64,000 bases of DNA from a candidate division FCPU426 bacterium (lineage in GTDB: Bacteria; Oederibacteriota; PGYV01; Palsa-1178). The position numbers and the translations under genes are program-made. Under the pieces are notes generated by a model. The model worked only from the letters and a program-made list of their open reading frames with translations. It was not told the origin of the DNA and searched no databases. Positions 6,871 through 42,607 of this stretch are shown here, piece by piece (positions within the stretch are counted from its first letter, which is position 1; the number at the start of each line of letters is the position of its first letter). The stretch is from contig CAWIXE010000001.1 in assembly GCA_963840035.1 (NCBI GenBank), positions 332,503 to 396,502 of the forward strand, in the 5' to 3' direction.

Positions 6871-7414
6871 CTCTATGCAGATAGTTTAACCCCGCCGGTA
6901 AGCCGGCGCGCCGCCTTAAATAACCCCCATGGCTAAAACCAGCGGCACGGGTTCTTTTCACGCCAAATTCCTTTTAAAACAACAACAAAATCCATTTTAT
7001 ACCTGTTTTTTTACTTTGTCAACGGTGTTTTATAATAGGGAAAGGGGGTAGTAAAACCAAATATAAGTCATAAACCAGGAAGAATCTCAGACCGGATGTC
7101 CGCAAGGATGTGATAATAATCGCTTTATTTGACAACAAATAATAATATCATTATATTTTATTAGGGTTTATTTTGATAATGTCTTGAATCAAGGCACAGT
7201 GTTGGGTTTGTTGGCTTGCGGTGTTCGGCGGGTATAAGAAGAATAATTTTATTCCAATTTTGTAAGTTTTACATGCATTTGCACATTGTGCTTTATTTAT
7301 AAGGGTGTTTTTCTGCCATTGTCTATTGTCAAGGCACGATGTTGTGTTGTTATTAATCGCACTTAATGTGCGAAAAATACTTGATGTTATCTTCATTTCC
7401 GGTTGTTTTCCCGA

Positions 7415-8782: not shown

Positions 8783-8823
8783 AGGATCAATTTCTTGTCC
8801 TGCCTGTCAATTATTGTCACTTT

Positions 8824-9681
8824 TTACCCCGCAAATTGGTTGACATTTTGTTCTCCGGATTTGATCAAACACAACCCCATATCTACAACTGATTTTACCA
8901 CGGCCTTCCTCACAACGTCAAGTTTATCCAGTCCCGGTATTTTCTGTTTTTCAATTTCCGCAATCGCATTTTCAGCTTTTTTAATTAGCTCATGCTTTTC
9001 TTCGTTTTTGTATATTTCTCCGTTTTTGAAAACTTCAGCGCTTGTTTTGCCGTCAAATATACGCCGCGGCATTTCGTGATTAATCTCATAAATCGCTCTT
9101 TCAAATTTGGCGTATACTTTTTCGTAATTTAACCCTCCTTTTTCAGTTTTCAGATATTTCTCAAATATCTGATTTTCGCGCTCCAGTTTCCCGTTGAAAA
9201 GCGGATAATGCCCGGGGCTGGGCATCGTGAGAATCTCTTTTTCTTTCAAATAACTTATTAATACTTCGTTCTGAAACTCAGAACCCCTGTCAGTTTTAAC
9301 CACAAGCGGTTTTATTCCCTGCTCGTTCATCACGCGTTCAAGCAGGATTTTCGCCTTTTCACCGGTATTTGAATAACTCATAATCCAACCAAGCACACAC
9401 CTTGAGTACTCCTCAAATACCAGCTGAACATACACATACCCTTCTTCGCAGCGTATTTTAATCGTATCTAGCGCCCAGCTGACATGCTTTTTTAGCCATT
9501 CAACTGACTTGTACTCTTTCTTTCCCGCTTTTTGCTTTTTCCTGGGCCCAAAATACTCATAAACTATTTTTGCAACGCTGCTTGGCGATATACCCGCTTT
9601 TATTGCCAAAACATAATTAGTTGATATTTCCGAAAACCTCCGTTTTAATTCCAGCACCCGGAGTATTGTTTCACCAGACAA
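8824..9681 (-). CDS. IS3-family transposase OrfB (integrase core, DDE)
   Basis: rve motifs VVKTDRGSEFQN and PSPGHYPLFNGKLERENQ. The frame is open upstream as far as the A9 site at 9865-9873. Confidence 0.7.
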   Translation of the reverse strand: MSGETILRVLELKRRFSEISTNYVLAIKAGISPSSVAKIVYEYFGPRKKQKAGKKEYKSVEWLKKHVSWALDTIKIRCEEGYVYVQLVFEEYSRCVLGWIMSYSNTGEKAKILLERVMNEQGIKPLVVKTDRGSEFQNEVLISYLKEKEILTMPSPGHYPLFNGKLERENQIFEKYLKTEKGGLNYEKVYAKFERAIYEINHEMPRRIFDGKTSAEVFKNGEIYKNEEKHELIKKAENAIAEIEKQKIPGLDKLDVVRKAVVKSVVDMGLCLIKSGEQNVNQFAG

Positions 9682-9788
9682 GGCCCACGGCGCATGTTTC
9701 GGCCCTGTCTTTTGGGGTTCCAGGGTATCTTTCTTTTTCCACGCATAATAATACTCCCTTGGAACCCCGATTGAATCAAAATACGCCT

Positions 9789-10295
9789 TTATACTTCCTC
9801 CGTTTTGTACGGTTTCTTCGGCACTTCTGAGTATATTTCTTTTAACACTTTCCGCATATTGGCGTTTTTTTTTGCGCCGTCTTCATCGTTTTTTTCAAAG
9901 AAGCTCGTTGCTTTCCTGGCTATCTGCAGTTCCTGTGTCGCCTTTTTCTTTTCTTCCTCCAGTATCCGGATCTTTTCCTCCAGCTTCCGCTGTTCTTCCT
10001 GCGCCTTTGTCACTGTTTCCCTCAGATCCTCTTCCTTCACGTAGTTCTTCGGCTTCCTGCCTCTCTTCTCCGTCTTCAGGAACGCCCTGGCTATCCCTTC
10101 CAGCGCTATTTTCTTCCACTCCCGGAACGTCTCCCTCGATATATCCATCTCCTCGCAGACCTGTTTCACCTTCTTTTCCTTTGCCATTACTTTCAGTACT
10201 GCCTGAAACTTCACCTCGTATGGGATTTCCCTGTAGTACTTCGTGGATTTCTGTTCCATCATTTCCTGCTGAATTTTCTCCTGTTCCATTTTCAA
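9789..10295 (-). CDS. IS3-family transposase OrfA (HTH plus leucine zipper)
   Basis: YREIPYEVKFQAVLKVMAKEKKVKQVCEEMDISRETFREWKK is HTH-like. A coiled-coil heptad region follows. The probable ATG is at 10289, preceded by an AAGGGGG ribosome-binding site. Confidence 0.7.
   Translation of the reverse strand: MKMEQEKIQQEMMEQKSTKYYREIPYEVKFQAVLKVMAKEKKVKQVCEEMDISRETFREWKKIALEGIARAFLKTEKRGRKPKNYVKEEDLRETVTKAQEEQRKLEEKIRILEEEKKKATQELQIARKATSFFEKNDEDGAKKNANMRKVLKEIYSEVPKKPYKTEEV
9865..9873 (-). promoter_or_regulatory. Programmed -1 ribosomal frameshift site (A9) joining OrfA to OrfB
   Basis: On the minus strand the zero frame reads GGC GCA AAA AAA AAC (GAKKN). I translated the -1 frame from the A-run and it stays open through ...PREYYYAWKKKDTLEPQKTGPKHAPWAL into SGETILRV of OrfB. 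Confidence 0.55.
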
Positions 10296-10299
10296 TTAC

Positions 10300-11469
10300 C
10301 CCCTTATTTTCTTTATTTTCCTTTTTTTCCTCCACTGCATCTAACCCCTCAACCATAACACTTCCTTCTTTTGCTATTACCCGTATTTCTTTTCCGCCTA
10401 TTTTTCCGATTAAATACATAGGCTCTTTTAATTTTCTCGGGTCAACAATTAGCGCGTCTTTTACCATTCCTGCCCCTTTTTCCATAACTTCACGCACCGA
10501 CTTTTCAACGCTGAAAAACCTGTCAGCAGGCAGTAACCCATCAATCCCCTGATGCGGCCTTTTGAAGTTATACCATTCCACCCATTTTCCTATCTTTTCC
10601 TGCGCGTCTTCAAAGCTGGATATCGGCTCTTTACTTAGTAATTCCTGGTACATATTCCGCCAGAGCGATTCAACTTTTCCGCAGGTTTGGGGATGATACG
10701 GCCGGCTTCTCAAATGGCTTATTCCGCTTCTTGTAAGGAATTTTTGAAATGTGCTTTTCCCCCTCCAACTGGCAAACTGCCTGCCGTTATCAGTAAGCAC
10801 TTCTTTTGGCATGCCGTACTTTTCTATCGCGTTTTTTAGCACATCCAGGACCCTGTCGCTGGTTTGGTTCCGAAATACCCCTATACTGACGACAAACCGC
10901 GAATAATCATCCAGACATGCTATTACATATATCCGGTACAGCCCCTGCAGCATAAATGTCATTATATCCATCTGGTACATGTCGCCGGGTTTGCTTCTTT
11001 CAAAACGCTGCGGTTCCTTTTGACTATTTCCATGCCGCAGGCTTTTTTCCTGTACCATTGTTGCTGTCTGAGGGTCGGTTCGGAGGACTTTTTCAATACC
11101 GTCGCGGCATACTTTTACGAACTTATTGCGCATCAAATAATCCCCGATTTTCTTAACTCCAATTCCGGGATTTTCCAGCTTTAATTTGACTATTTCCGCT
11201 TTTACCGCTTCCGGTACTTCCTGCGCTACTTTGCCGCCGCGGTTATCTTCCAGCCCCTCTTCACCGCCTGTTTTGTACCTTTCTTGCCAGCTTTTAAAAG
11301 TACCGACGCCCATTCCATACCACTTACAGAACATAGTAATAGGCGCACCTATCTGTTCAAATTCTTTTAGCAGTTTTAGTTTTTCTTCTTTTGAGTAGAT
11401 TTTACCGGCGGAGTCGCTTTTTGTGTATTTTCTCTTTCCCTTTTCTTTCTTTTTCTTCATGAACCACAT
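10300..11469 (-). CDS. DDE transposase, IS481-like (N-terminal HTH plus rve core)
   Basis: Motifs VLTDNGRQFAS and SRPYHPQTCGKVESLWRN. The ORF-track frame (9895-11469, 524 aa) continues as low-complexity G/E-rich read-through across the IS3 OrfA region. The true 3' end probably lies near 10300. Confidence 0.65.
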
Positions 11470-11525
11470 ATATTTTACCTCCTCTTTCGTTGAATTTCCA
11501 GAGGTAAAATGTCAACCTATTTCAA
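10300..11525 (-). mobile_element. IS481-like insertion sequence (single DDE transposase); its 3' end abuts or is cut by the IS3 element
   Basis: The transposase ATG at 11469 is preceded by an AGGAGG ribosome-binding site. The left boundary is inferred from the abrupt end of the helicase fragment at 11530. Confidence 0.5.
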
Positions 11526-11529
11526 TGGG

Positions 11530-11712
11530 TTAGCAGTTATGATAATTGACGGCTAGGATAACCCTTGTCTTCCCGCTTCCGGCGCCGGCAAGAATCAGTA
11601 TGGGCCCGTCCTTGTGCTTTACAGCCTCAAGCTGTTCTTTATTCATAAGTTCATTAATATTGCTGTTTGTCAATGCTTTGGCTCCATGTTTTTTTCCTGA
11701 GTGGTCATACAA
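11530..11712 (-). pseudogene. Stub of a UvrD/PcrA-like helicase N-terminus (60 aa, Walker A only)
   Basis: [32 protein letters not shown] is the helicase motif I region. The ORF ends about 5 bp from the inferred IS481-like edge. Confidence 0.5.
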
Positions 11713-11855
11713 TTCCTAAAGATTATATAATGGAAAGGAGTTTTGTCAAGCAAGGATTAAAAACATTTCTAATCTTATTTATATATATAATTATATTTCT
11801 CGTAATTTATTTGGTTGCGTTTCTTTGAAACTGAGTATTAACGCACGAGTTAGAT

Positions 11856-12305
11856 TTAAGTATTTGTGCCCTTCCGTTTCCTTAAAACTGTTGACATACA
11901 ATCTATTAACAACACACTTAGCGACATACCAAATATGCATGTTATTATTCCGATTTTAAATGCCATCTGAAAAAACTCCCTATACTTGATAAATTTTTTT
12001 GATTCCTCTATTAGGTCGTTGTTAAAAATTAAAAACAAAAAAAACACCGCGGATGTAATTATTATGCTTATAATAATTCTTGCATATCGCCGTATTTTAT
12101 TTTTATCCCCCAAAACAGAGTAAGCATCCTCAACAAAAAACGGAATTAATATAACAAACATAAGGTATGTGGAAATTAAATAAGAAATATATTTTTTAAA
12201 TCCAACTTTTTCCAATAACAATGATAATACAACACAGCTTATTAACACACAACTATATACAATAAATTTTAATATTGCCTTTTCGTTTTTTTTAGGTTTG
12301 TTCAA
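11856..12305 (-). CDS. Small membrane protein, candidate immunity protein for the upstream RHS C-terminal toxin
   Basis: 149 aa, 4 TM helices, AT-rich. It starts 7 nt after the stop of the RHS-tip ORF. Confidence 0.45.
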   Translation of the reverse strand: MNKPKKNEKAILKFIVYSCVLISCVVLSLLLEKVGFKKYISYLISTYLMFVILIPFFVEDAYSVLGDKNKIRRYARIIISIIITSAVFFLFLIFNNDLIEESKKFIKYREFFQMAFKIGIITCIFGMSLSVLLIDCMSTVLRKRKGTNT

Positions 12306-12311
12306 CTCAAA

Positions 12312-13147
12312 TCATCTCCAGCCTTCAATAATATCCGTTAAAGCTAAATAACCACCTTGTTCTATTAAAATAAGTCCTGTCCCCTTTGCAAGGAATCCTG
12401 GCAATCCCGGTATATTGGTTTTAAGCAATAAACTTCCAGCTCCGATCAGGTATGTTTTAAGCTTTCCGTCACTCATGTCAAATGGATCAAATTCTTGTTT
12501 AACTAATGGTTGTGTCATTAAAACCGCATCAAATATCAAACAAGAATTATCGTAAAAGTCCGAAGAGAAAAAGTCATTGTCTGTTGTTTCTAAGTAATTG
12601 TTGTCACTAATTACTTTATCATCACCATTTATATACTCAATCTCAGCTTCGTTGGGACAAGAAGTATTATAAGGATTTCCATAATTATCATTATTCGGGT
12701 CATCATACATATTCGTTGATTTTGGATTTCTCCAATCGTTTTCTTCATCAACTTCATAATCAACATCATTATTTGAAGTAGCTTCCTCCTCAGATCTCAT
12801 TTCCTCACAATCTGCCTCAATATGAGTCCATCCATCAGAATCAACATAATCCTCTCCATACCTATCTATTAGATTTGTGGGATTGTTTGCGCAATACTCA
12901 TACGTATTAATTATGTTATTTCCTTCCAACACAGGATCGTTTTCAATAAATCTCCCCGTATTTGCATCATACCACCTTGCGGCAAAGTAGTAAAGCCCGG
13001 TGTCGGGGTCGTACATGTTTGAGGACAGGCCGAATTTGCTTATGCCGTTTCCTGTCCTTTTCCCGAACTCATCATCTGTTTCCCTCTCCAGCACCTGTCC
13101 TTTCTCATCACAGACCATATATACGCTTCCTATGCGGTCGGGGTATT
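12312..13147 (-). CDS. Orphan RHS core-end plus C-terminal toxin domain fragment
   Basis: Contains ...RIGSVYMVCDEKGQVLERETDDEFGKR...DPDTGLYYFAARWYDANTGRFIENDP...NTYEYCANNPTNLIDRYGE, the conserved RHS core terminus. An acidic, unique C-terminal domain follows. The frame opens only at about 13147 (TAG upstream), so no RHS body is present. Confidence 0.65.
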
Positions 13148-13318
13148 GCTAAGACAGCGTCTTCAGTTCTACTTCCAAATAATGGGCGAGGTATTTCAGA
13201 AACTGGCTGTTGTCAGGTAAAAAAAAGGTGAATTTACGGTTGTTTTTTCCGATATATTTAATAGTTGCTATTTTAAAACATATGGCTTAAAATTAAAAAA
13301 GTAAAAATTACGGGGTGA

Positions 13319-15289
13319 ATGTTGAAAAAGTTCATGTTTTCCGCGGTATTCATATGCTTTTTAAGCGGCTTTTCGTTTGCCGGCGCCGAGCTTGTCGGCA
13401 CAACAAGCGAAAATTTCAGCAAGATACCCCCTTTTGCCAGGGCCGCGGCCATGGGTGAGGCTTTTACGGCCGTGTCCGACGGCACATACGGACTTTATTA
13501 CAACCCCGCCGGTATGACCCTTATATCGGGTTATGAGGCGCAGCTAACGCATATAGCCTGGTTCCAGGACATTAATTATGAATTCTTATCTCTTGTCGCG
13601 CCTTTTCCCATGATGGACTTTGGGAAGATAGGCCTTGCGCTCGCGTGGTTCCGCGTGGACGAGCTTACAAAAACATCCGCTCTTGCTTCATACGACCCGG
13701 CATACCTTGACACTGTTGACTACTCCCAGTTCACGGAAAAATTTTCCCCATTTGACCTTTCAGTCACCCTTGCCTACGCCCTGGACCTCAAGGAAAACTT
13801 TTCGGCCGGCGCTTCGCTTAAATACACCTCGCAGTTCATAGACAAATTCAACGGCTCCAACATTACCGCCGAGATAGGCTTCCTGTACCGCGTGATATCA
13901 TACGGCAATTACCTCCGCCTGGGAATTGATATGACCAACCTGGGCTCTGACTTAAAGCTGCACGACATAGGTTTTGAGCCGCCGAAACTTTTAAAGGTCG
14001 GCCTCTCAGACCAGCTGCAGATATGGAACGGCACCATGTTAATCGCGGCGCAGGCGGTCCTACCCGCGGATTACGCGCCGGTTTATTCCATAGGATTTGA
14101 ATACTGGCTTTTTGACATGGTGGCTCTGCGCTTCGGTTATAAGACAGGCGGCTTTGACCACCCCACCTTTGGCGCCGGTTTCCGGTATAATAATTTTGAA
14201 ATTGATTACGCTTACATACGTTACGATGAGCTCGGCAACACGCACAGGTTTTCCCTTCTTTACAGCTGGGGCTCGCCCGCGGTAAAGCTTAAAGTTACCC
14301 CGGCCCTTTTCTCGCCCAATAAGGATAACTTCCTTGATACTGTTTCATTCATACCCGTGTTAAAAAACCCGGAGAAGCTCAAGGCCCTTAAGCTTTCCAT
14401 ATTCGGCGGCGATAAGGAAACCGCGCTTGCCTCATTTAATCTCCAGGATAAGGCGGCTAAGTCTGTGCCGTGGGGCGGAAACACTAAAGCGGGAGTCCTC
14501 CCTGACGCTGTTTACCAGGCCTCCATCACCGCCGAGTATGATAACGGCACCTCCGAATCAAACCGTGTCTCAGTTGAGATAGACAACACGCCGCCGGTAA
14601 CAAAAGTGGACGGCGACCCGAAGCTGTTAAAACCCGGGCAAAAAGACTCGCTCATCATACCCGCCACATTCACTTTCTTCGCGCAAGACAGGAATAAGGT
14701 TTCGAAGTGGCAGTTTGTAATATGGGATTACGATAAAAAAGTGTTTTACTCCACACAGGGCAGCGGCGAACCTCCGCTCTCCATAATATGGGACGGCAAA
14801 AGCAACGACGGCTCATACGTAAAAACAGGCGAAGTTTATCATTACAGCCTTATCGCCTATGATACCGTGGGCAACCGCGGGCAGACAGCGATACAGTCAG
14901 TGGTTGTGCTCTTAAAGGAAATAAAGCTTACCTTCGCCTCAGACGCGCTTTTTGACCTTGGCGAGGCGGACGTTAAGATCTCCGCATACTCTGTCTTAAA
15001 AGATATGAAAAAGACCATAGACGCGCACCCTGATTCGGAAATAGTTGTCGCCGGATATACGGATAACATACAGCCCAGGGGCATAAAGTATAAGGACAAC
15101 ACCGAACTTTCAAAAGCGAGGGCCGACGCTGTCAAGTTCTTCATGGTAAACCTTCTTGAATACGATGAAAAAAGGATCAAGACCGAGGGTTACGGGGAGC
15201 TTATGCCCATTGCCGATAATAACACGGAAGAAGGCAGGCTGAAAAACCGCAGGGTGGATATCATCATACGCAGTACCATTTATAAATAA
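13319..15289 (+). CDS. Outer-membrane protein with an N-terminal beta-barrel (PorV/FadL-like), a FlgD-Ig-like middle domain and a C-terminal OmpA-like peptidoglycan-binding domain
   Basis: Signal peptide. ARAAAMGEAFTAVSDGTYGLYYNPAG barrel motif. WDGKSNDGSYVKTGEVYHYSLIAYDTVGNRG matches the FlgD Ig-like fold. The OmpA C-terminal signature is AGYTDNIQP...LSKARADAV...GYGELMPIADNNTEEGRLKNRRVDIII. Confidence 0.6.
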   Translation: MLKKFMFSAVFICFLSGFSFAGAELVGTTSENFSKIPPFARAAAMGEAFTAVSDGTYGLYYNPAGMTLISGYEAQLTHIAWFQDINYEFLSLVAPFPMMDFGKIGLALAWFRVDELTKTSALASYDPAYLDTVDYSQFTEKFSPFDLSVTLAYALDLKENFSAGASLKYTSQFIDKFNGSNITAEIGFLYRVISYGNYLRLGIDMTNLGSDLKLHDIGFEPPKLLKVGLSDQLQIWNGTMLIAAQAVLPADYAPVYSIGFEYWLFDMVALRFGYKTGGFDHPTFGAGFRYNNFEIDYAYIRYDELGNTHRFSLLYSWGSPAVKLKVTPALFSPNKDNFLDTVSFIPVLKNPEKLKALKLSIFGGDKETALASFNLQDKAAKSVPWGGNTKAGVLPDAVYQASITAEYDNGTSESNRVSVEIDNTPPVTKVDGDPKLLKPGQKDSLIIPATFTFFAQDRNKVSKWQFVIWDYDKKVFYSTQGSGEPPLSIIWDGKSNDGSYVKTGEVYHYSLIAYDTVGNRGQTAIQSVVVLLKEIKLTFASDALFDLGEADVKISAYSVLKDMKKTIDAHPDSEIVVAGYTDNIQPRGIKYKDNTELSKARADAVKFFMVNLLEYDEKRIKTEGYGELMPIADNNTEEGRLKNRRVDIIIRSTIYK

Positions 15290-15383: not shown

Positions 15384-15587
15384 CTGCGGCGGCGGGAGTG
15401 GCTGGTATTTTTTTGATATAACTTTGGCTCAAACTTCCGCTGCAAGTAGACTCCCGGAAATCTCTCCGGCCCGGTTGAATACCCGCAAAGTAATCCCTGA
15501 ACCTCCCGCGTGTCATATTATTATTTTCCGGACAACCTCGCCAAATTTGACATATTATCAAAAAAATAGCGGACGCTCACGCCGCCG
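15384..15587. repeat. MITE-like element family A, copy 3
   Basis: CTGCGGCGGCGGGAGTGGCTGG ... CGCTCACGCCGCCG. Same terminal inverted repeats and internal blocks as the copies at 3939-4412. Confidence 0.6.
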
Positions 15588-15646
15588 TGTGGGTTTTGGT
15601 TTGAAATTTGGAGATGTTTGAATGGTATTGATTTAATCACTGGAAC

Positions 15647-16081
15647 TTATTTCTTCTTTTTCTTTCCTGTTTGTTTCTTTTCTGTTTTCTTTTCCGGTGT
15701 GGGCTTGTATTGCTTGTTCAGGGCTTCCATCTTTGCCGCTGTCTCGTCGCTCATGTGGTGTTCCATTCCGCAGGATTCCTCTTTTGCTTTTTCCGGGTCG
15801 GATTTTAAGACGTTTGTGAGGAATTCAAATAACGCCTTGTTCTTTGCCAGTATTTTTTCCGCGATGGACTTTCCGGCCTCGGTTAATGTTATAAAGCCGT
15901 AGCGTTCGTGGGTTATGAGCTCGTTTTTCTTCAGGTATGTGACTGCCGCCACCACGCTGGCTTTTTTTACGTTTAAGTGCCTGCCTATGTCTGAAACTCT
16001 CGCTACTTTGCTTTTGTTTTCAAGCTGGAGAATTGTTTTTATATAATCTTCCATTGCCGCTGAAAGATTTACATCCTGCAT
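15647..16081 (-). CDS. DtxR/MntR-family metal-dependent transcriptional repressor
   Basis: MEDYIKTILQLENKSKVARVSDIGRHLNVKKASVVAAVTYLKKNELI is the DtxR-type HTH. A dimerisation helix and a K-rich tail follow. Confidence 0.75.
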   Translation of the reverse strand: MQDVNLSAAMEDYIKTILQLENKSKVARVSDIGRHLNVKKASVVAAVTYLKKNELITHERYGFITLTEAGKSIAEKILAKNKALFEFLTNVLKSDPEKAKEESCGMEHHMSDETAAKMEALNKQYKPTPEKKTEKKQTGKKKKK

Positions 16082-16222
16082 CGAACACCGCCCTTAACTT
16101 CTAAGTTATATCTGCCTAACAAATATTGTAATACTCAAACAAAAAATGTCAATAGTATTTACTTGCATAAATTCATTTTGTTTGTTTTTTGATTTTTTAA
16201 CTTGACATTTAGTCCTGCTTTT

Positions 16223-17935
16223 TTATGCGGCTTTTTTATTTTTCACGATGATATATATATTGACGCATATTATTACGGCGCACCAGGCCGCTATTATGCC
16301 GGGCCTTATTTTTCCGGCATCCCATAGCTGCGGGAATATCCACGATATGTCAGACCGCGCTGCCTGGGATAAAAATTTCATGACCCAGTTTACGCCGTTC
16401 CCTTTGTTCCACCTGAACCACGGTACCAGAAGGATTATGTACGTCATAAACAGCCCCCAGCATGCCGCAGCCTTAAAAACCGCTTTTTCAATCTTCCCTT
16501 TTGCCTCTTTATAAACCGCCGCGATAAAGAGCGAGAATATGAATATTACCGCCACCATGAACCGCGAAGATGCGCCGCCGCCGCCGTTCCATACGACCCA
16601 CGAGGAAACAAGCGCGTAGTAAGGCACTATTAAAAGCAGCGTGTAATAGAATACCTTTTTGCTTTCCCTGTATAAAAACCAGGCGCCGACTAAGAAAAGC
16701 ATGTACACGGGCGTGTAAAAGAAAAGCCCGAACTCCTGGTCCAGAAGCGTCCCCAAAAACCCGTTTATGCCCGTTAAAAACTGCTTTGATATATCCGCAG
16801 CCTGCTGGGTCTGCCTCGGTATCAGCTGCCTGAAATGGGCGTAATTAAAGGAAAACAGGGCCGCCAGGGAAATGGCCTGAAAAAGGAGGAAAAATGCGGT
16901 TTCCTTTATCCTGGCGCGGTTCTCCCAGACAAAGATGGCTGCCAGAAACGCCCACAAAAATCCGTTGCGGACATGCGCCCACGGCGCCAAAGCCAGGATA
17001 ATCGAGGCAAAAACAGGGTGCTGCTTTTTATACAATATCATGTAGAAAGCCGAAACCACGATAAGCCCGCTTAAGGATTCGGCGCATATCTGGTTTGCGT
17101 ACATTATCACAGGCATGGAAAGCCCTGTAATGAGCGCCGTATGCGCGGCAATCCTGTTATCCTTAAAAACAGCCGCGACCAGCAGGAATATTATTGCCAT
17201 ATAAAGCGCCGTAACAAAGTCTGTTAATAATGTCGCGCCGAATCTGCCTGCTGCAAGGTAAAAAGGCTGTATGATGAATGATATCAGCATGGGGTGGTAC
17301 GGATAAAGTTTCCCGGAGACTTCTATCTCCTGCGGCGCGAGTTCTTTGTCATAAAACCCCAGGTAGTCCCTGTTTTCATAATTATTTTTCAAGTCTATGT
17401 CCCTGTCATGGATCATGCTGTGCGCCGCAAGCAAGTAAACAGGCTCGTCGCCGGTCGGCTGGTTGGCGTAGTTAAACCACAGGGTCACGCCGAAATAAAA
17501 AACCATGAAGAAAGTAAAAATGGAAATAAACAATTTTTTTTCCGTGGTTTTCATGTAATCCGCGGACTTATTTACCATGAAAATAACCTGGCCGGCTAGG
17601 ACAGCGATAAAAGTGGCGTATGACGCGCCGAGTAAAAGTTCAAACTTCCTCAGAGTAAAATTATGCGGGTCCGGAAAAACAACTTTCATGACAACGGGCG
17701 CAAGGAAAAGTATTAAAAATGAAAATGTTGCCGGCGAAAGCTTTTTAAAAATTTTGAAAAACCCTTCCTTGGTCCAGCATCTGACGCCTGCAGCTGCCAG
17801 CGATAAAAAAATATATACTGCCGCCGGGAGAATATAAACCGGATATATGAACCCTCCGGGATTGTTCAGCGCGAATGCTTTCATGTAAACAATATAACTT
17901 ATGACAAAACATATGTTTGCCGCAAGCGCGAGCAT
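16223..17935 (-). CDS. GT-C fold membrane glycosyltransferase (PMT/ArnT-like, COG1807 family)
   Basis: About 13 TM helices. First periplasmic loop motif PTGDEPVYLLAAHSM. A paralog lies at 53038-54924. Confidence 0.6.
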   Translation of the reverse strand: MLALAANICFVISYIVYMKAFALNNPGGFIYPVYILPAAVYIFLSLAAAGVRCWTKEGFFKIFKKLSPATFSFLILFLAPVVMKVVFPDPHNFTLRKFELLLGASYATFIAVLAGQVIFMVNKSADYMKTTEKKLFISIFTFFMVFYFGVTLWFNYANQPTGDEPVYLLAAHSMIHDRDIDLKNNYENRDYLGFYDKELAPQEIEVSGKLYPYHPMLISFIIQPFYLAAGRFGATLLTDFVTALYMAIIFLLVAAVFKDNRIAAHTALITGLSMPVIMYANQICAESLSGLIVVSAFYMILYKKQHPVFASIILALAPWAHVRNGFLWAFLAAIFVWENRARIKETAFFLLFQAISLAALFSFNYAHFRQLIPRQTQQAADISKQFLTGINGFLGTLLDQEFGLFFYTPVYMLFLVGAWFLYRESKKVFYYTLLLIVPYYALVSSWVVWNGGGGASSRFMVAVIFIFSLFIAAVYKEAKGKIEKAVFKAAACWGLFMTYIILLVPWFRWNKGNGVNWVMKFLSQAARSDISWIFPQLWDAGKIRPGIIAAWCAVIICVNIYIIVKNKKAA

Positions 17936-17937
17936 CG

Positions 17938-19575
17938 CTATTTTAACTCCAGCAAAAATATATCATCAGCATAAAAACTTTCCTTCTTTGATACCTTATA
18001 ATACCTGCTGACCCACGGCAGTTTATTTATGTCAGGCGGCTCCCCTGAATCATAATTTGAATTCCATATATTTCCTATCGGCAGCCATATTTCTTTCATG
18101 CCTATCTTGTTGTCCCTGACAAACCATACCCTCCTGTATTTCCCCGGGAGACCCATGGCGTCCTGTGAAGTCAGCGTGTTTTTGTCAAAACCCGCGTATA
18201 TATCCATCCCGAATTTCTTCAGCAGCACTTCATTCTTGAAGGCCCTCCACATGTCCCTTATTTTAAACCTCAGCCCGCTGCCTTTAAATTCAGGTATTTC
18301 GCCCATGAGCCTGTTGGATATTTTAGTGTTGCTCATGTACCTGCTGTAGAATTCAAATGACGAGTATGAAGCCATGAAGCTGTGGACAATGACGTCCCCT
18401 TCCCTGAAATTTTCAGCTACCTGCGTGTACTGCTTTTTATAATCCGCTTTCTGGTATTTTTCCACAAAATAATAATTGTATAAAGCCAGCGAGTATATCC
18501 CGAACATGACTGTCATGGCCAGTGTTTTACCCTGCATAGACATATATGATATCCCTATGGAAAGCAGCACGATGATAAGAGCTGAAACAAGTATGAACGT
18601 CCTTTCCGAGTATATGGACTTCCCGGTCAGAACCGATATGATCCACGGAAACAACATGAACCCGGCCGAGACCCAGAATATTATGCCTGTTATTTTTATG
18701 GATTTTTGCCTGTAAGTAAACGCGCCTATTATGACAAGGTAAAGGGCCGCGACAAGGGCTATGACCGTGAAAATACCCCAGTCAAAAGTCATGCCGAAGA
18801 GGTAATTTTTCATGGAATAAAACGGGGCTAAAAACATCTGCATGTTGTGGTAGTATGACTCCGCGGAAGAGGCTTTAAGCAGGAACATGAACATCGGCAG
18901 GAGAAAAACGGCTATTACTGCCTGCGCTTTAAGCCACAGGTTGAGCCTTATCTCCTCCCTGTATCCTATTATAAGCACTCCATTCATCACCAAAAGCAGT
19001 ATGACGGCAAAAGCGTGCGTATATATTCCCAGCACGCTCCAGAATACGAAAGGCCCCGCCATGAAGGAATTGTATTTTATCGACATCAGGAAGTAGTACA
19101 TCATGAGCATGGATACCACCAGGAACATGGTATAATTTCTGGCTTCCTGCGCGTAATATATCTGATACGGGTTCAGGCAGAAAAGCGCCGTGGCAATCAG
19201 GCTCGTCTCCTCGCTAAAAAACGCCCTCACAAATCTGTAGAAAACAAACATGGAAATGACGCCGAAAACAAACGGCAGGAACCTTAAACTGAGCTCGCTG
19301 TACCCGAAGATGCCGCAGAAAATATGCTCAAGCATGTAAAACATTGGCGGATGCATGTCCTTGGCAAAAACGTCCCAGAAGACCATGATCAGGTCCTTAT
19401 TTGCGGCAAACCGCGCCGTGCAGAACTCGTCTATCCAGACAGACTGGCCGCCCAATTTAAAGAACCTTAAAAATATTCCAATTGCGAATATGATTATGAG
19501 TATGACCGTACTCTTGTTTTTTATTTGTATTACCTGTTTCATTTTACACCTTTCAATGCCGTTATTTAATATCAT
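17938..19575 (-). CDS. GT-C fold membrane glycosyltransferase (PMT/ArnT-like)
   Basis: Polytopic. Loop motif GGQSVWIDEFCTARFA (a DE-x-x-T/Y type). The start possibly lies at the internal MKQV. Confidence 0.55.
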   Translation of the reverse strand: MILNNGIERCKMKQVIQIKNKSTVILIIIFAIGIFLRFFKLGGQSVWIDEFCTARFAANKDLIMVFWDVFAKDMHPPMFYMLEHIFCGIFGYSELSLRFLPFVFGVISMFVFYRFVRAFFSEETSLIATALFCLNPYQIYYAQEARNYTMFLVVSMLMMYYFLMSIKYNSFMAGPFVFWSVLGIYTHAFAVILLLVMNGVLIIGYREEIRLNLWLKAQAVIAVFLLPMFMFLLKASSAESYYHNMQMFLAPFYSMKNYLFGMTFDWGIFTVIALVAALYLVIIGAFTYRQKSIKITGIIFWVSAGFMLFPWIISVLTGKSIYSERTFILVSALIIVLLSIGISYMSMQGKTLAMTVMFGIYSLALYNYYFVEKYQKADYKKQYTQVAENFREGDVIVHSFMASYSSFEFYSRYMSNTKISNRLMGEIPEFKGSGLRFKIRDMWRAFKNEVLLKKFGMDIYAGFDKNTLTSQDAMGLPGKYRRVWFVRDNKIGMKEIWLPIGNIWNSNYDSGEPPDINKLPWVSRYYKVSKKESFYADDIFLLELK

Positions 19576-19644
19576 GCATACATCTATTTTAACAAAACAA
19601 AGAATTAATTCAATTTTTATTATGTCTTTTATGAATGGATCTGC

Positions 19645-20781
19645 CTACGGAGTCGGTGTTATAGTGGGAGTCGGTGTTACAGTTGCGGTCGCTGATGTTA
19701 TCAGATCCACCTGCAATACCTCATTTGTATAAACACCGCCGGCTTTTAATCCGGCTGTCATCCAGTATTGCCCGTTCAGGTCAACTAGCCCCTGAAACGC
19801 CCTTCCTGTGAAATCTTCGTCCTGTGTCTCGCGGACCCAGTTTATCCCGTTATCCGTCGACCATATCTCTCCATATTGTGTTGAGGCATCCGCGCCTCCT
19901 ACCGCCCATAGTCTTCCATTTGCGCTTATCAATCCCATTGCGCACCTCGGACTGAATCCGGGCGACGCCGTTGCTCTGCTCCATGTCGCTCCATCGGTTG
20001 AATGCCACACTTCGCTGCTGTACGACCCTCCACCGAAATTGCCGCCAACAACCCATATCTCTCCATTGAAAACAGCACATCCTATCAGGTCCCTCGGCGT
20101 GAACCCGGCTGATGACGTCTCCTGCATCCATGTTGTTCCATTGCTTGAGCTCCACACGTCATTTTTCATTACACCGCCGGTCGTATTTCCGGCTATTATC
20201 CACATTTTCCCGTTGAATACCACACTGCCGTGGTTTGTCCGGTATCCTACTGACGTAGTAGAGGCTTCCAACGCCCATATCACTCCATCTGTGGAACTGT
20301 ATATGTCCCTCTTTATCGCTCCTGAATATCCTCCCATGATCCACATCCTGCCGTTATATGCCACTGAGGAGTGACCGTACCTTTCGGAAAATGCCGCGGA
20401 TCCTGTTGCCTGCGTCCATGATACCCCGTCAGGCGAATACCAGACATCGTTCATGTCTCCGCCAACGCTGCTCGATCCCGCTATTATCCATATCTTATTA
20501 TTGTATATCAGGGTCGTATGCGCCGCCCTTCCCGGTAACGTCGCTGTAAAAGTCGGGGTAAAGGTCCTGGTTATCGTGCTGGTTGGAGAAAATGTTCTGG
20601 TGTTTGTTTGCGAAGGTGTTTTTGTTGTAAAAGTCAAGGTCGGTGTTATCTGGGTTGAGGTGAATGTTAGGCTCGGCGTTGGAAATACAGGTGACGGAAG
20701 GTTTCTTTTAGAACTGCATGCCTGGAAAAAAAATATGGCACACACCAATAATAATATCGCTGTCCTCAAGAATTTAGCCAT
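19645..20781 (-). CDS. Secreted or lipoprotein Kelch-like beta-propeller with Thr/Pro-rich linkers
   Basis: Signal peptide ending in QACSS. PT-rich linker PTPSLTFTSTQITPTLTFTTKTPSQT.... Six repeats of about 48 aa of the form DVW-S-DG--W...F--R--H..V-FNGKMWIIGG. The C-terminus ends in TPTPTITPTP. Confidence 0.55.
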   Translation of the reverse strand: MAKFLRTAILLLVCAIFFFQACSSKRNLPSPVFPTPSLTFTSTQITPTLTFTTKTPSQTNTRTFSPTSTITRTFTPTFTATLPGRAAHTTLIYNNKIWIIAGSSSVGGDMNDVWYSPDGVSWTQATGSAAFSERYGHSSVAYNGRMWIMGGYSGAIKRDIYSSTDGVIWALEASTTSVGYRTNHGSVVFNGKMWIIAGNTTGGVMKNDVWSSSNGTTWMQETSSAGFTPRDLIGCAVFNGEIWVVGGNFGGGSYSSEVWHSTDGATWSRATASPGFSPRCAMGLISANGRLWAVGGADASTQYGEIWSTDNGINWVRETQDEDFTGRAFQGLVDLNGQYWMTAGLKAGGVYTNEVLQVDLITSATATVTPTPTITPTP

Positions 20782-20940
20782 GAAAACACCCTCCAATTAT
20801 TTATCGTTTTTATATTATAACATATCAGGAAATGATATGGGCATATGTTTTCTGATATATATGCATAATGATGTAATATTTAAATTAACTGGGGTTTAAT
20901 GATTGATAAGAATTTTCGGAAAGTTTGTATATTTGCTTTT

Positions 20941-22083
20941 TTATTGTGCTAGTTTTGCATATATTTTAAGAGTTTCTTCCGCAGTCTCTTTCCATGAAAA
21001 TTTTTCCGCCTGCTTAAACCCCTTTTCCTTCAGGGACTCCCTTTTTGACTCGCTCTTTTCAAGCTCATCGAGCCCGCGGACAATGTCCTCCACGGAAAAA
21101 GGGTCTATGAGCATGGCCGCGTCCCCGGCCACCTCTGAGAGCGACGTATTGTTTGAAGTCACCACAGGCAGCCCGCAAAGAAAAGCCTCCAGCACCTGCA
21201 GCCCGAAACCTTCCCACATGGAAGGGAACAGGAACATGAACGCCGCGTTATAAAGCAGGATCATGTCCTCCTCGGGCGCGTACTCTGTTATAATCACGTG
21301 CTTTTCCAGGTTCAGTTCCTTAATTATATCCGCGATATTCGTGGTGTCCATCTCTTTTTTTCCGATGGAGGTGATCACCAGCTGGTATTTGAATTCCGTC
21401 ATGTTATTGAACATGTTAAAGGCTTCAAGCGAGCGCGCAGTGTTTTTCCTCATGTCGGAGGCCGCGCTTAAAAGTACAAACGGCTTTGTGATGCCGTATT
21501 TCTGTTTTATGCCGGCAATCTTTTTTTCGTCGTTTATGACGCGGTATTTTTTATCCGCGGCTTCCTTTATGACTGTCACTTTTTCTTCTTTGACGTGCAT
21601 GTGCTTCATAATGTCCGATTTTGAATATTCGGAAACAGTTATTACATGGTCCGCTATCCTGCCGGAATGGGGTATTGAAAATTTATTATACGCGTCCACC
21701 ATGCGCTGCTTGAACGTCGGTTTTGATATTGCTTTTGCCAGCGGCCGCACGAACATGGTGTCGTGTATGGTCACTACCTTTTTTCCCTGATAGTAAGGGC
21801 TTAAATACGGAAGCGTATTGTCGGTCCCGTGCAGTATGTCGAGCTTATCCTTCGCCGCTTCCATAGGAAGCAGAAACTGCTCATATAAAAGGGCGTTCGC
21901 GGTATTTAACCTCTTGAACCTGCAGTTTTTCGCCGCTATATATTCATTAAGGGTGGAACGCTTGTCCAGGTAAACGATGTATTCGTTTTTTTTGTCTATC
22001 TCAAGGAGGTTCTTAACCAGGTTTTCAATATACCTGCCCACACCCCTCTTGAAAATTATCCTGGCGTCAATTCCTATTCTCAC
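20941..22083 (-). CDS. Glycosyltransferase family 4 (GT-B fold)
   Basis: E-x7-E motif EGFGLQVLEAFLCGLPVVTSNNTSLSEVAGDAAMLIDP. Confidence 0.75.
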   Translation of the reverse strand: MRIGIDARIIFKRGVGRYIENLVKNLLEIDKKNEYIVYLDKRSTLNEYIAAKNCRFKRLNTANALLYEQFLLPMEAAKDKLDILHGTDNTLPYLSPYYQGKKVVTIHDTMFVRPLAKAISKPTFKQRMVDAYNKFSIPHSGRIADHVITVSEYSKSDIMKHMHVKEEKVTVIKEAADKKYRVINDEKKIAGIKQKYGITKPFVLLSAASDMRKNTARSLEAFNMFNNMTEFKYQLVITSIGKKEMDTTNIADIIKELNLEKHVIITEYAPEEDMILLYNAAFMFLFPSMWEGFGLQVLEAFLCGLPVVTSNNTSLSEVAGDAAMLIDPFSVEDIVRGLDELEKSESKRESLKEKGFKQAEKFSWKETAEETLKIYAKLAQ

Positions 22084-22150
22084 AATTCACCGCTTTTTTG
22101 TTCATTGTTCCTCGTTCATTGTTCTGTTGCCACCCTCCACTCACCACCCA

Positions 22151-22927
22151 CTACTCACAACTTTCTATACCCTTCTTTCTCCCCACCACTATAAACCCTC
22201 CGCCTTTTTCCGGCAGAAGTTTTGTCATTATCGCGTCTATGGCGTCAAGCTTCCAAAATATGAATTTTTCCGGCAATTTGCCTATGATATTCTCAAGGCC
22301 CTTGGGCATCCTTAAATAATTTGTTGATATGGTCTTTTCCACTTCAAACCCGGCCTTATACATGAGATCTTTTACCTCTTTCGGGTTGAAGTTAAAAAGG
22401 TGGTCCTTGTGCTCTATCTCCAGTTTTTTCGCGTGCTTTTTAAACATGAGCTTATAAAACGCGTCCTTGTTGGTGAGGGTTACTATTATGATGCCGCCTT
22501 CTTTTAAGGCGTTGTAGGCGTTTTTTATGACCTTGCCGGGCTCATAGGTGTGGTCAAGGACTTCCTTTATCAGGCAGGCGTCGTACGCGCAGGATTCCTC
22601 CAGCGTCTCGCCTGTGCCGTGCCTTAACTCAAAATCCTCTTCCTTTATCTCGTCATGAAGCATGTTCTCGGATGGCTCTATGCCGGTATATTTTTTTACA
22701 ATATCGCGCGAGAGCTTGTAAAAATCCCCCCTGCCCGCCCCTATATCCAGCAGGCTTAAGTACTCATTGCGCGCCACGACTTCCTTGGCCAGTATGGAGA
22801 TGACGGTCTTATTGAGCCTTTTCCACTTTTTTTTCATCATCTCTGTGGCAGAGCTCTCCAGCAGCTCGGTATCATCCCACTTAAGCTGCGTCTCTTCCCA
22901 GGCTTTTACCTTATCGTCGTTTTCCAT
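22151..22927 (-). CDS. Class I SAM-dependent methyltransferase
   Basis: Motif I LLDIGAGRGDF. I place the probable start at MENDDKV (22927). The longer ORF-track start (23068) reads through the REP element. Confidence 0.7.
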   Translation of the reverse strand: MENDDKVKAWEETQLKWDDTELLESSATEMMKKKWKRLNKTVISILAKEVVARNEYLSLLDIGAGRGDFYKLSRDIVKKYTGIEPSENMLHDEIKEEDFELRHGTGETLEESCAYDACLIKEVLDHTYEPGKVIKNAYNALKEGGIIIVTLTNKDAFYKLMFKKHAKKLEIEHKDHLFNFNPKEVKDLMYKAGFEVEKTISTNYLRMPKGLENIIGKLPEKFIFWKLDAIDAIMTKLLPEKGGGFIVVGRKKGIESCE

Positions 22928-23010
22928 AAATCTCCCGGCTGTTGTGTTGATATGACTTATTTTAACAAAAACAGAGGTATATTTAAAGGTGTAATAAGGG
23001 ATTTTATTGT

Positions 23011-23179
23011 TCTCGTAGAGAGGGGGCTTGCCCCCTCTCAAACGCAGGCCTGCCTTGAGATCCAGCAAGCCGGCTCTCTACAGTTATATAAAACCACAAC
23101 AAAGTTCTCGTAGAGAGGGGGCTTGCCCCCTCTCCAGCGCAGGTCCTGCCCTGAGAGGCAGCAAGCCGCCTCTCTACAG
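23011..23179. repeat. Two REP-pair (BIME-like) units downstream of the RAYT gene
   Basis: The unit CTCGTAGAGAGGGGGCTTGCCCCCTCTC...CCGGCTCTCTACAG occurs twice (23011-23093 and 23106-23179). It has a GTAG head and hairpin stems. Confidence 0.65.
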
Positions 23180-23698
23180 GTTCTCTAACTTCTTCCGTTC
23201 CTCAAACAATTCATACCATTCCTTCTCTTCCATGCCGGGTTCATAAACCATTGGGTTGTTTAATATATACTCACTTGCAAAAAAATACTCAAATTCTCCC
23301 CGTATTATCCTGTCATAAAACCCTTCCTGCCAAAATTTCCTGCCGGGTTTCTGTTGTAATTTATTAATTGCTATCGTTGATTTTGATTTAAAAACGCATA
23401 TCATATCGTGGAGTGTTTTGCCTGTTTTCCTGCCAATCCGGATAATACCGTGCATATGATCCGGCATAAACATAAAATCGCCAAGAGCAATGTTTTCAAA
23501 CTTACTTTTTAGTTCGATCCAGCATGCTGTTGCCGCCTTTCCGGCGTCTGACAAAAACATTTTTCGGTCTTTTATAGAACCAAAAAAGTTATGCCGTTTA
23601 TCAAGACAGATGGTGACAGAATAATCCCCTTCCGATGAATAGTCATATTCTTTTAAATGATTTGATTCGATACGGTATTTGTTGTTGTAAAGCGACAT
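23174..23698 (-). CDS. REP-associated tyrosine transposase (RAYT, IS200/IS605 TnpA-like HUH enzyme)
   Basis: HUH motif FMPDHMHGIIRI. Catalytic Tyr region FWQEGFYDRIIRGE. 174 aa. Flanked on both sides by inverted REP pairs. Confidence 0.75.
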   Translation of the reverse strand: MSLYNNKYRIESNHLKEYDYSSEGDYSVTICLDKRHNFFGSIKDRKMFLSDAGKAATACWIELKSKFENIALGDFMFMPDHMHGIIRIGRKTGKTLHDMICVFKSKSTIAINKLQQKPGRKFWQEGFYDRIIRGEFEYFFASEYILNNPMVYEPGMEEKEWYELFEERKKLENL

Positions 23699-23744
23699 AT
23701 AAACCCCTCTATTTTACGATTTATATCCCCAAAATACGTTTTAC

Positions 23745-23894
23745 TTGCCCCCTCTCAAACGCAGTCCAGCCCTGAGAGCCAGCAAGCCGGCTCTCTACAG
23801 TTTTATAAATACAAAACAACGCTCTCGTAGAGAGGGGGCTTGCCCCCTCTCAAACGCAGGCCCTGCCCTGAGAGCCAGCAAGCCGGCTCTCTAC
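23745..23894. repeat. REP-pair (BIME-like) units upstream of the RAYT gene
   Basis: A partial unit plus a full unit of the same 75-85 bp repeat as 23011-23179. Confidence 0.65.
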
Positions 23895-23906
23895 AAATTA
23901 TATATA

Positions 23907-24974
23907 TTATTTAACTTCCGCCTTATACTTCACCAGCCGCTGTTTTTTCTTCCCTTCCAGCATCTCCAGCGCGAGCCTTCCTATGAACTCAGCTGGTATT
24001 TCCAGGCATTCCTTGTAAATGTCCTTCCTGTTGCATATGGCAAGCCCGCACGGGCTGCATTTGACGTGCCTGTCTACTATTACGGCCTTGTCTCCCATGG
24101 CTCCCCACTCCTGGTACCTTGCGGAACCGCTGAATATGGTGAGCGACTTTACGCCGAAAGCCGCCGCGATATGGACGGCCGCGGAATCATTACCTATGAC
24201 GAGAGAGGCGTGTTTTATAATGGCTTTCATTTCCTTTAAGTTGAGCATACCTGCCAGGTTTACCACGTGCCTGCCGCGTATCTTTTCTATGCCCCTGTCT
24301 TTTTTCCCGCCGACTACGACGGTCTTTATGCCGCGCGACATGAATTCAGCCAGGCTGTTGTACTTTTCCATGTCCCAGTCTTTGGACGTGTGCCCAGAGA
24401 CAGGGTGCATGACTATGTATTTCGTGACTTTTCCTTTTTCAAGAAGGGCTTTTATGTTGTCTTCCGATACCTTATCTGTTTTAAGCGCTGTTTTTGCTGG
24501 AAGCTTTACGCCTGTTATTTCTTTTAGCAGGAGCATGTTTTTTTCCGCGGCGTGGGATGAGATCGGCGGGTGGCTTACAATATGGTTGATGCCAAACCCC
24601 ATTTTGCCGGTATCGTATCCGTATTTGTCCTTTGCCTTTGCCATGGAGAGTATAAACGAAGTGAGCCTGTCCTGCCAGCGCATGCCAATTATCATGTCAT
24701 ACTTTCCGGCGTTTAAAAGGGATATGAGTTTGAATGCGGAAAACCATCTTACGAAAAACGGCTTTGGCTCGTACTTAAGCCATTGCGCGTCAAATGTCTT
24801 AACTTCATCAAAACACCCGAGCCCGTCTAAAACCTGCGAGCCCGCGGGGCTTAAGAACGCGGTGATGTGGGCGTCCTTAAAATGTTTCCTCAGTCCCAAA
24901 AAAAATGGAGACGCAAGTACTGCGTCTCCGATACCGTCTGTTTTTATGACCGCGATGCGTAGCCTGTTTTCCAT
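23907..24974 (-). CDS. ADP-heptose:LPS heptosyltransferase (GT9 family)
   Basis: N-terminus MENRLRIAVIKTDGIGDAVLASPFF. C-terminus GNDSAAVHIAAAFGVKSLTIFSGSARYQEWG. Confidence 0.7.
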   Translation of the reverse strand: MENRLRIAVIKTDGIGDAVLASPFFLGLRKHFKDAHITAFLSPAGSQVLDGLGCFDEVKTFDAQWLKYEPKPFFVRWFSAFKLISLLNAGKYDMIIGMRWQDRLTSFILSMAKAKDKYGYDTGKMGFGINHIVSHPPISSHAAEKNMLLLKEITGVKLPAKTALKTDKVSEDNIKALLEKGKVTKYIVMHPVSGHTSKDWDMEKYNSLAEFMSRGIKTVVVGGKKDRGIEKIRGRHVVNLAGMLNLKEMKAIIKHASLVIGNDSAAVHIAAAFGVKSLTIFSGSARYQEWGAMGDKAVIVDRHVKCSPCGLAICNRKDIYKECLEIPAEFIGRLALEMLEGKKKQRLVKYKAEVK

Positions 24975-40564: not shown

Positions 40565-40579
40565 TTTCAAGGAGGGTTT

Positions 40580-42532: not shown

Positions 42533-42607
42533 TAGAAAAACGGAGCTGGATTATCACTTCTCCTGTCTCCAATCTCTTGTCTCTTAACCTCTAAGGAGCA
42601 ACAACTT

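Follow-up and report, generated by a model that had tools for sequence, protein, structure and literature searches.

A conserved glycosyltransferase operon of Goldbacteria and FCPU426 relatives and its probable part in the assembly of an envelope glycan

When two adjacent membrane glycosyltransferases of the GT-C type are encoded beside a secreted protein with Thr/Pro-rich linkers, do they modify that protein or a glycan of the cell envelope? The question is raised by a stretch of 64,000 nucleotides from a candidate division FCPU426 bacterium (contig CAWIXE010000001.1, positions 332,503 to 396,502; this whole stretch is referred to below as the window). Eight genes on its minus strand, from 24974 to 15647, had been listed in a preliminary description as a candidate module for protein O-glycosylation or for an envelope glycan. 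All eight were recovered by analysis of open reading frames (ORFs) and by Pfam and NCBIfam searches. In minus-strand order they encode a GT9 glycosyltransferase, a RAYT transposase, an S-adenosylmethionine (SAM) methyltransferase, a GT4 glycosyltransferase, a Kelch protein with Thr/Pro linkers, the two GT-C enzymes, and a MntR/DtxR regulator. The reading that we favour, and regard as probable, is that five of these genes form a lineage-wide envelope-glycan operon, whose products assemble a lipid-anchored glycan on both faces of the membrane.

The G+C content of the window is about 46%, and its nearest homologues are from metagenome-assembled genomes (MAGs) of Candidatus Goldbacteria/Goldiibacteriota and FCPU426. 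The host is thus not an actinobacterium, and the analogy with the actinobacterial protein O-mannosyltransferases (PMTs), which had guided the preliminary description, holds only as a comparison across phyla.

The conserved operon and its two insertions

Some 20 independent orthologous loci (designated by L numbers below) were collected from contigs encoding homologues of the two GT-C proteins and from a scan of GTDB species genomes; for locus finding, alignment A1 was too diverse, while the tighter alignment A3 worked. The order dnaG-rpoD-GT9-(MT1)-MT2-GT4-GT-C(PMT_2)-GT-C2, where MT denotes a methyltransferase, is common to about 20 Goldbacteria, Goldiibacteriota and FCPU426 genomes. It is kept, with overlaps of 1-14 nt, in L001, L003, L005, L006, L007, and L009, and the same order is found in 16 GTDB species loci (among L013-L028). 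The housekeeping genes dnaG (28628-26790 in the window, minus strand) and rpoD (26806-25067, minus strand), both assigned by Pfam and NCBIfam, lie directly upstream of the operon in the relatives, except in the more distant lineage L026, where the order is YfhO-GT9-MT2-GT4-GT-C-GT-C. Because L026 keeps the block without dnaG-rpoD, the five genes can be regarded as a functional unit. The tight packing of GT9-MT-GT4-GT-C-GT-C and its conservation across about 20 genomes support the envelope glycan module that had been proposed.

The first gene of the conserved operon (24974-23907, minus strand) encodes a protein with a clear GT9 domain (PF01075, 116.8 bits against a cut-off of 22). It falls below every NCBIfam heptosyltransferase equivalog cut-off, including those for WaaC/F/Q, the best match being TIGR02201 (heptosyltransferase III; 98.4 against 170.2 bits), and has about 24% identity to WaaQ of E. 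coli. The GT4 gene (22083-20941, minus strand) encodes a cytoplasmic enzyme of the GT-B fold with matches to Glycos_transf_1 (101.5 bits) and Glyco_transf_4, and it shares 53-79% identity with its orthologues. Between the two lies MT2, a class I SAM methyltransferase of the DREV/Methyltransf_23 type (ORF 23068-22151, minus strand). The TTG start of this ORF falls within a repeat copy described below, and the most likely start is therefore the ATG at 22930, which gives a coding sequence (CDS) of 22930-22151 and a protein of 259 residues; the orthologues have 251-265 residues. At the GT9/MT2 junction many relatives carry the second methyltransferase, MT1, others carry different cargo, and L023 likewise has a RAYT gene there. 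MT1 was not found in the window by tblastn.

At the position of MT1, between GT9 and MT2, the window carries a repetitive extragenic palindrome (REP)/RAYT insertion (23052..23895, minus strand), which is specific to this genome. Its RAYT gene (23698-23174, minus strand) has a Y1_Tnp match above the cut-off (28.5 against 23 bits), while the score with the NCBIfam RAYT model (REP_Tyr_transpos) is below it (56 against 80). G+C at third codon positions (GC3) is 0.42 in this gene and about 0.60 in its neighbours. Two REP copies lie upstream of the gene (23865-23895 and 23769-23799) and two downstream (23148-23178 and 23052-23082), four matches where none is expected by chance. The element is GC-rich, about 70 nt long, and contains TGTAGAGAGCCGGCTTGCTGGCTCTCAGGGC. 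A RAYT-type Y1 transposase bracketed by four GC-rich palindromic repeats recalls the known REP/RAYT (REPIN) systems, from which this one differs in its sub-threshold NCBIfam score and in that no other REP copies occur in the window. The REP sequences also give rise to spurious ORFs, namely one at 23745-24239 on the plus strand and the stretch by which the methyltransferase ORF is lengthened at its 5' end.

The second insertion, of 1.4 kb (19543..20940, minus strand), carries the Kelch gene and was seen only in this genome, being absent from the GT4/PMT_2 junction of all of the roughly 20 relatives. Because GT4 directly adjoins the first GT-C gene in every relative, the Kelch gene is to be regarded as an insertion here. 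Nucleotide homology to L007, the closest relative, in which the GT4 and PMT_2 genes overlap, ends at 20960 (the end of GT4) and resumes exactly at 19542 (the PMT_2 start). The insertion consists of an AT-rich leader with an extended -10-like element, TGTTATAAT (20822-20814), followed by the Kelch CDS (20781-19645, with the ATG start at 20781, in an ORF of 20796-19645 on the minus strand), which was assigned from Kelch matches in Pfam and in the PDB and has a GC3 of 0.52 against about 0.60 for its neighbours. The encoded protein has a signal peptide ending in FFFQAC, a Thr/Pro-rich linker at about residues 25-90, a six-blade propeller and a C-terminal TPTPTITPTP tail; as a lipobox (consensus [LVI][ASTVI][GAS]C) FFFQAC is atypical at positions -3 and -2, the related neighbours having ISGC, LTGC, and MNAC. 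Since no terminator-like site was found downstream of the Kelch stop codon as far as the PMT_2 start, transcription from the Kelch promoter may extend into the GT-C genes. Insertion by way of flanking REP copies was considered for the Kelch gene, but no such copies were found around it. Just past the GT4 stop, the sequence ATAAAAAAGCAAATATACAAA (20900-20945) is similar to that at the PMT_2 start (ATGAAACAGGTAATACAAA; 19520-19545), perhaps as a degenerate duplicate that the insertion left behind.

L001 (with three copies), L003, L022, and L026 likewise encode Kelch proteins in the neighbourhood of the operon. All have Thr/Pro-rich linkers, placed either right after the lipobox Cys or before a C-terminal FlgD_ig-type domain. 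Of 21 genomes, 5 have such a Thr/Pro-linker Kelch protein no farther than 10 kb from the operon, and none was found at the 21 control loci, which were taken from the same lineages (Fisher p of about 0.05; about 0.36 Mb in each set). This enrichment is suggestive, if borderline, and its weight depends on how many copies of the family each genome carries. This association could equally reflect common cargo of a recombination hotspot.

The paired GT-C enzymes

The gene for the first GT-C enzyme (ORF 19575-17938, minus strand) most likely starts at 19542, because its orthologues have 532-534 residues. The protein, recognizable by a WIDEFCT sequence, belongs to the PMT_2 clan (PF13231, 39.9 bits against a cut-off of 26.1), and its DE motif (WIDEF) is encoded at 19431-19426; E50 is invariant in the alignment and D49 is the consensus residue. 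The AlphaFold model (pLDDT 90.7) is ArnT-like, with a transmembrane core and a C-terminal alpha/beta domain of about 170 residues. The best fold match is ArnT (PDB: 5F15/5EZM; TM score 0.57-0.58), which aligns over the full length including the C-terminal domain, and is followed by ALG9, Pmt4, ALG12, and the oligosaccharyltransferases OST/PglB/AglB.

The second enzyme, GT-C2 (17935-16223, minus strand; PTGDEPVYL), is encoded by a gene whose start overlaps the PMT_2 stop, and the two genes are always adjacent. It has no Pfam match and was assigned to the GT-C fold from its model (pLDDT 93), which shows four extra transmembrane helices before the canonical first helix. The fold matches are ALG12, ALG9, Pmt4, ArnT, ALG3, and PimE, with TM scores of 0.34-0.51. 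The top Foldseek matches of both models are almost exclusively GT-C enzymes, which confirms the fold. The GDEP motif (17452-17441) is made up of residues G162, D163, E164, and P165, all invariant in 35 GT-C2 sequences, and in both enzymes the first extracytoplasmic loop opens with one or more conserved acidic residues. GT-C2 has diverged over its whole length except for this catalytic loop; compared with the PMT_2 profile by hhalign it reaches a probability of 91.6%, the two being distantly related. Intragenic recombination in GT-C2 was considered and dropped, as the identity profile is one of uniform divergence with a single conserved catalytic loop.

In family terms the GT-C enzymes can be filed neither as PMT nor as ArnT. 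The PMT_2 protein shares with ArnT (GT83; Cupriavidus 5EZM/5F15 and the E. coli arnBCADTEF pathway) its Pfam match, its best full-length fold match, the combination of a transmembrane core with a small C-terminal periplasmic domain, and the loop-1 DE motif. It differs in that it shows, as does GT-C2, no significant sequence similarity to ArnT of E. coli (hhalign probability of 2% with the A2 profile; E = 0.57 in the PDB profile search), and in being paired with a second GT-C next to GT9, methyltransferase and GT4 genes. Single-sequence and profile searches of both GT-C enzymes against PDB sequences returned nothing useful. With the GT39 PMTs (yeast Pmt1-Pmt2 and Pmt4; Mycobacterium Rv1002c) the pair has in common the GT-C fold and the DE motif; moreover, two adjacent GT-C genes recall the Pmt1-Pmt2 heterodimer, and Thr/Pro-rich lipoprotein linkers are encoded nearby. 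However, neither enzyme matches the true PMT domain PF02366 (Pfam, E <= 0.01) or PMT_4TMC; only some 255 columns of full-length Pmt chains can be aligned (TM about 0.3), a 493-residue Pmt4 entry reaching a TM of 0.44-0.48; and the cytoplasmic GT9, GT4, and methyltransferase that are co-conserved here are not needed by PMT pathways. Since E. coli ArnT has PDETRY aligned with the DE motif, this motif does not separate PMT from ArnT. In the fold comparison Pmt is the closest structural relative of neither enzyme: ArnT comes first for the PMT_2 protein, ALG12 and ALG9 come first for GT-C2, and Pmt4 ranks third to fourth.

The only curated model matched by GT-C2 is NF047440 (LA_3751/LA_3752 of Leptospira), which also matches a paralogue in the window and distant members of the family. 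The scores are 27-62 bits against a 200-bit cut-off, and the LA_3751/LA_3752 family is itself uncharacterised. The paralogue (53038-55014, minus strand) has 658 residues, 25% identity to GT-C2 and no Pfam match, and its orthologues in six other genomes have an ArnC-like GT2 gene 8-92 nt downstream, a gene that is missing here. A profile search of 1.84 billion representatives gave 11,009 relatives of GT-C2 at E <= 1e-3, of which 1,250 reach E <= 1e-30. Ten sampled members of the family had no Pfam match on the membrane core, and some members carry C-terminal CBM60, F5/8-type-C or TPR domains; those fusions that bind sugars may point to a glycan as the acceptor.

An ArnC-like GT2 gene lies within 3 kb of a GT-C2-family gene in 20 of 86 loci, often at a distance of 3-120 nt. 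This adjacency supports a polyprenyl-phosphate-sugar donor. In the relatives L007, L009, L018, L022, L023, and L025, a variable cassette follows GT-C2 and separates it from an mntR gene, which is treated below. The cassette can hold an ArnC-like GT2, a B12-radical-SAM protein, YfhO, an epimerase/dehydratase and a DegT/ArnB-like aminotransferase, and L022 has a Kelch lipoprotein in it. The ArnB-like aminotransferase and epimerase/dehydratase genes are present in the cassettes of L007 and L025. ArnB- and ArnC-like genes downstream of GT-C2 form a further likeness of the relatives to the Arn pathway, from which the present locus differs in having no arn-type genes in the window and in that lipid A is only a putative acceptor.

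Across the relatives the genes of the operon vary independently in their identity to the window, and the GT-C values do not follow those of rpoD and GT4. In L007 the amino acid identities are 89% for rpoD, 78% for GT4, 70% for PMT_2, and 37% for GT-C2, and in L001 they are 79% for rpoD, 64% for PMT_2, and 50% for GT-C2. In L006, L021, L022, and L024, rpoD (86-87%) and GT4 (78-79%) stand against only 34-39% for PMT_2. These values suggest that the outward-facing enzymes may have undergone allelic replacement. Taken together with the swappable donor cassette, they recall, as we see it, the turnover of alleles that is typical of loci for surface glycans.

Candidate pathways for the glycan

We infer the following donor type, order of steps, and range of acceptors. 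GT9 and GT4, both of the GT-B type, would act together with the methyltransferase at the cytoplasmic face, where they would build or decorate a lipid-anchored glycan. After export of this glycan, both GT-C enzymes would add sugars carried on polyprenyl phosphate at the outer face, and the donor would probably be made by a small ArnC-like GT2 such as that encoded next to GT-C2 in many relatives. The acceptor could be a lipopolysaccharide (LPS)-like core, another lipoglycan or a lipid-linked oligosaccharide. ArnT, ALG12, ALG9, Pmt4, ALG3, and PimE, i.e., the enzymes found among the fold matches, all use polyprenyl-phosphate monosaccharides as donors. Possible parallels to such a two-sided assembly are the ALG pathway, in which GT4 steps precede luminal ALG3/9/12, the mycobacterial phosphatidylinositol mannoside (PIM) and lipomannan (LM) pathway, in which PimA/B precede PimE, and LPS core synthesis with ArnT or Rgt. 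The first two include the best fold matches of GT-C2 and would share with the operon a GT4 at the cytoplasmic face followed by a GT-C enzyme that uses a polyprenyl-phosphate sugar on the other face. They differ from it in sequence and structure (10-15% identity; TM 0.34-0.51), in the bacterial GT9/methyltransferase context, and in the four extra N-terminal helices of GT-C2.

Several observations weigh against this reading. No acceptor for the glycan emerged from the analysis, and neither in the window nor among the fetched loci did an lpx, kds or waaA gene appear; a tblastn search of 1.5 Mb of fetched loci gave no match with WaaA of E. coli and only generic NAD-dependent epimerases (22-30%) with HldD, results which are uninformative on LPS. 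An ArnC-like GT2 donor synthase was not found in the window by tblastn, and literature searches found nothing relevant on the Goldbacteria envelope or LPS. The GT9, PMT_2, and GT-C2 proteins all fall below every curated equivalog cut-off. The fold matches are weak (TM 0.44-0.58) and include the protein-directed Pmt4, OST/PglB, and DPY19, and a protein substrate would be consistent with the repeated presence of Thr/Pro-linker Kelch genes around the operon.

Within the two-sided envelope-glycan reading, a more specific and possible, though rather doubtful, version is that the operon decorates the LPS inner core and lipid A, with a WaaC/F/Q-like GT9, a WaaG-like GT4, and ArnT/Rgt-like GT-C enzymes adding a polyprenyl-phosphate-linked (amino)sugar in the periplasm. 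The GT9 family itself, the heptosyltransferase III model as its best NCBIfam match, ArnT as the top fold match, and the ArnB-, ArnC- and epimerase-like genes in the downstream cassettes of L007 and L025 would all fit, as would the Wzy_C/O-antigen-ligase-family gene and the OmpA-domain protein of the window, which are described below. Against this stand the lack of Kdo (3-deoxy-D-manno-octulosonic acid) or lipid A genes in the window and the fetched loci and the scores of GT9 below all heptosyltransferase cut-offs. Moreover, the GT-C2 family also occurs in MAGs of Chloroflexota, Actinomycetes, and Patescibacteria, groups that are not known to make LPS. It is far less probable that the GT-C pair extends a phosphatidylinositol-anchored lipoglycan of the PIM/LM type, the first steps of which would be encoded 20 kb away in the window. 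There, a cluster on the plus strand (39920-44616) encodes, in this order, a CDP-alcohol phosphatidyltransferase, a myo-inositol-1-phosphate synthase, a Lip_A_acyltrans protein, a GT4 and a second Lip_A_acyltrans protein, a five-gene composition that we take to match the mycobacterial pgsA1-patA-pimA genes for phosphatidylinositol mannosides, and PimE is among the fold matches of GT-C2. The two clusters are, however, not linked, the PimE match is weak (E 0.26), and GT9 has no role in PIM synthesis. By analogy, the cluster suggests that this organism may make inositol glycolipids.

The idea from which the analysis started, that a PMT-like and possibly heterodimeric protein O-glycosyltransferase formed by the two GT-C enzymes modifies Thr/Pro-rich linkers, with the adjacent Kelch protein as a substrate, appears unlikely to us. 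It draws on the loop-1 DE motif in both enzymes, on the constant adjacency of their genes with overlapping stop and start codons, on Pmt4 and Pmt1-Pmt2 among the fold matches, and on the proximity to the operon, at the frequencies given above for genomes and control loci, of Kelch proteins with lipobox-proximal or C-terminal Thr/Pro linkers. Mycobacterial lipoproteins are indeed O-mannosylated on Thr-rich stretches right after the lipidated Cys. Yet the Kelch gene is within the operon in this genome only, and the enrichment of its kind near the operon is borderline and depends on the copy number per genome. Together with the failure of either enzyme to match PF02366 or PMT_4TMC, with ArnT as the best structural match of the PMT_2 protein, and with a DE motif that is common to ArnT, this position of the Kelch gene speaks against its O-mannosylation by PMT-type enzymes as had been proposed. 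The co-conserved GT9, GT4, and methyltransferase, for which a PMT-type pathway has no need, also count against the idea. They would find a place if the obligately paired PMT_2 and GT-C2 were a non-actinobacterial protein O-glycosyltransferase for the Thr/Pro linkers of Goldbacteria surface proteins, among them Kelch lipoproteins recruited time and again to the vicinity of the operon, supplied by GT9, GT4, and the methyltransferase with a methylated lipid-linked glycan donor, a proposal that we hold to be somewhat more improbable still.

The mntR boundary and the wider meaning of the operon

The regulator gene (16081-15647, minus strand) encodes a protein with both DtxR-family domains above the cut-off (PF01325, 48.6 bits; PF02742, 56.3 bits), which remains below the equivalog cut-offs for MntR (PRK03902, 84.4 against 138) and DtxR (41.5 against 290). 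Its orthologue (35-78% identity) follows GT-C2 in 13 relatives, directly so in the window and in L006, L014, L016, L019, L020, and L028, and after the variable cassette in the six loci named above. The gene, here called mntR, is part of a unit (15575..16152, minus strand) with a promoter-like TTGACA-16-TACAAT at 16152-16125 and a terminator-like hairpin at 15594-15575. Downstream of the -10 element and ahead of the ribosome-binding site lies a dyad, GTTAGGCAGATATAAC (16120-16105, minus strand). In the form GTTAG-N6-WTAAC it is kept in 11 of 13 orthologous mntR upstream regions (beside the window, in L006, L007, L009, L014, L018, L019, L022, L023, L025, and L028), and it is probably the autoregulatory operator of mntR. 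One other match to the dyad occurs in the window, at 48284-48299, and has no obvious regulatory meaning there.

The preliminary description had placed a DtxR regulator at the close of the glycan block. It is of the DtxR family and a conserved neighbour of the block, in 13 relatives, but its own promoter-like site, dyad, and terminator-like hairpin set it apart as a separate unit and not as the last member of the operon. A DtxR box near the glycan genes, for which a search had been suggested, was not found: TWAGGTWAGSCTWACCTWA has no match with up to three mismatches anywhere in the window. The region before the Kelch gene contains no palindrome, and that before PMT_2 has a single AT-rich one of 13 nt, which is weak (77% complementary). 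The mntR gene therefore appears to be a conserved and separately transcribed boundary gene of a variable region, probably autoregulated, and there is no sign in these data that it controls the glycan genes.

Two further regions of the window may be mentioned. A plus-strand gene at 679-2445 encodes a 588-residue Wzy_C (O-antigen ligase/PglL-type) protein with C-terminal TPR repeats, which could alternatively serve as a ligase or O-oligosaccharyltransferase; in L006 a single gene, over a distance of about 1.7 kb, separates its orthologue from an N_methyl (type IV pilin-like) gene. An island of low G+C (36-42%) extends from about 6900 to 13200 and carries two rve-type transposase genes (8824-9681 and 9895-11469) and unannotated ORFs. 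It parts the OmpA-domain gene (13319-15289), which comes after mntR, from a cNMP-binding gene and a gene for a 595-residue protein, both of which are near mntR in L006.

One lesson of the locus is a caution: a striking neighbour, such as the protein with Thr/Pro linkers that is encoded here beside PMT-like enzymes, can owe its place to an insertion in one genome and need not be a functional partner. The operon behind dnaG-rpoD in about 20 genomes offers a starting point for the study of the cell coat of an uncultured phylum. The most useful lead is the GT-C2 family, which at E <= 1e-30 counts no fewer than 1,250 representative clusters and has neither a Pfam model nor a characterised member, and whose repeated adjacency to an ArnC-like GT2 makes for a testable hypothesis on its donor.

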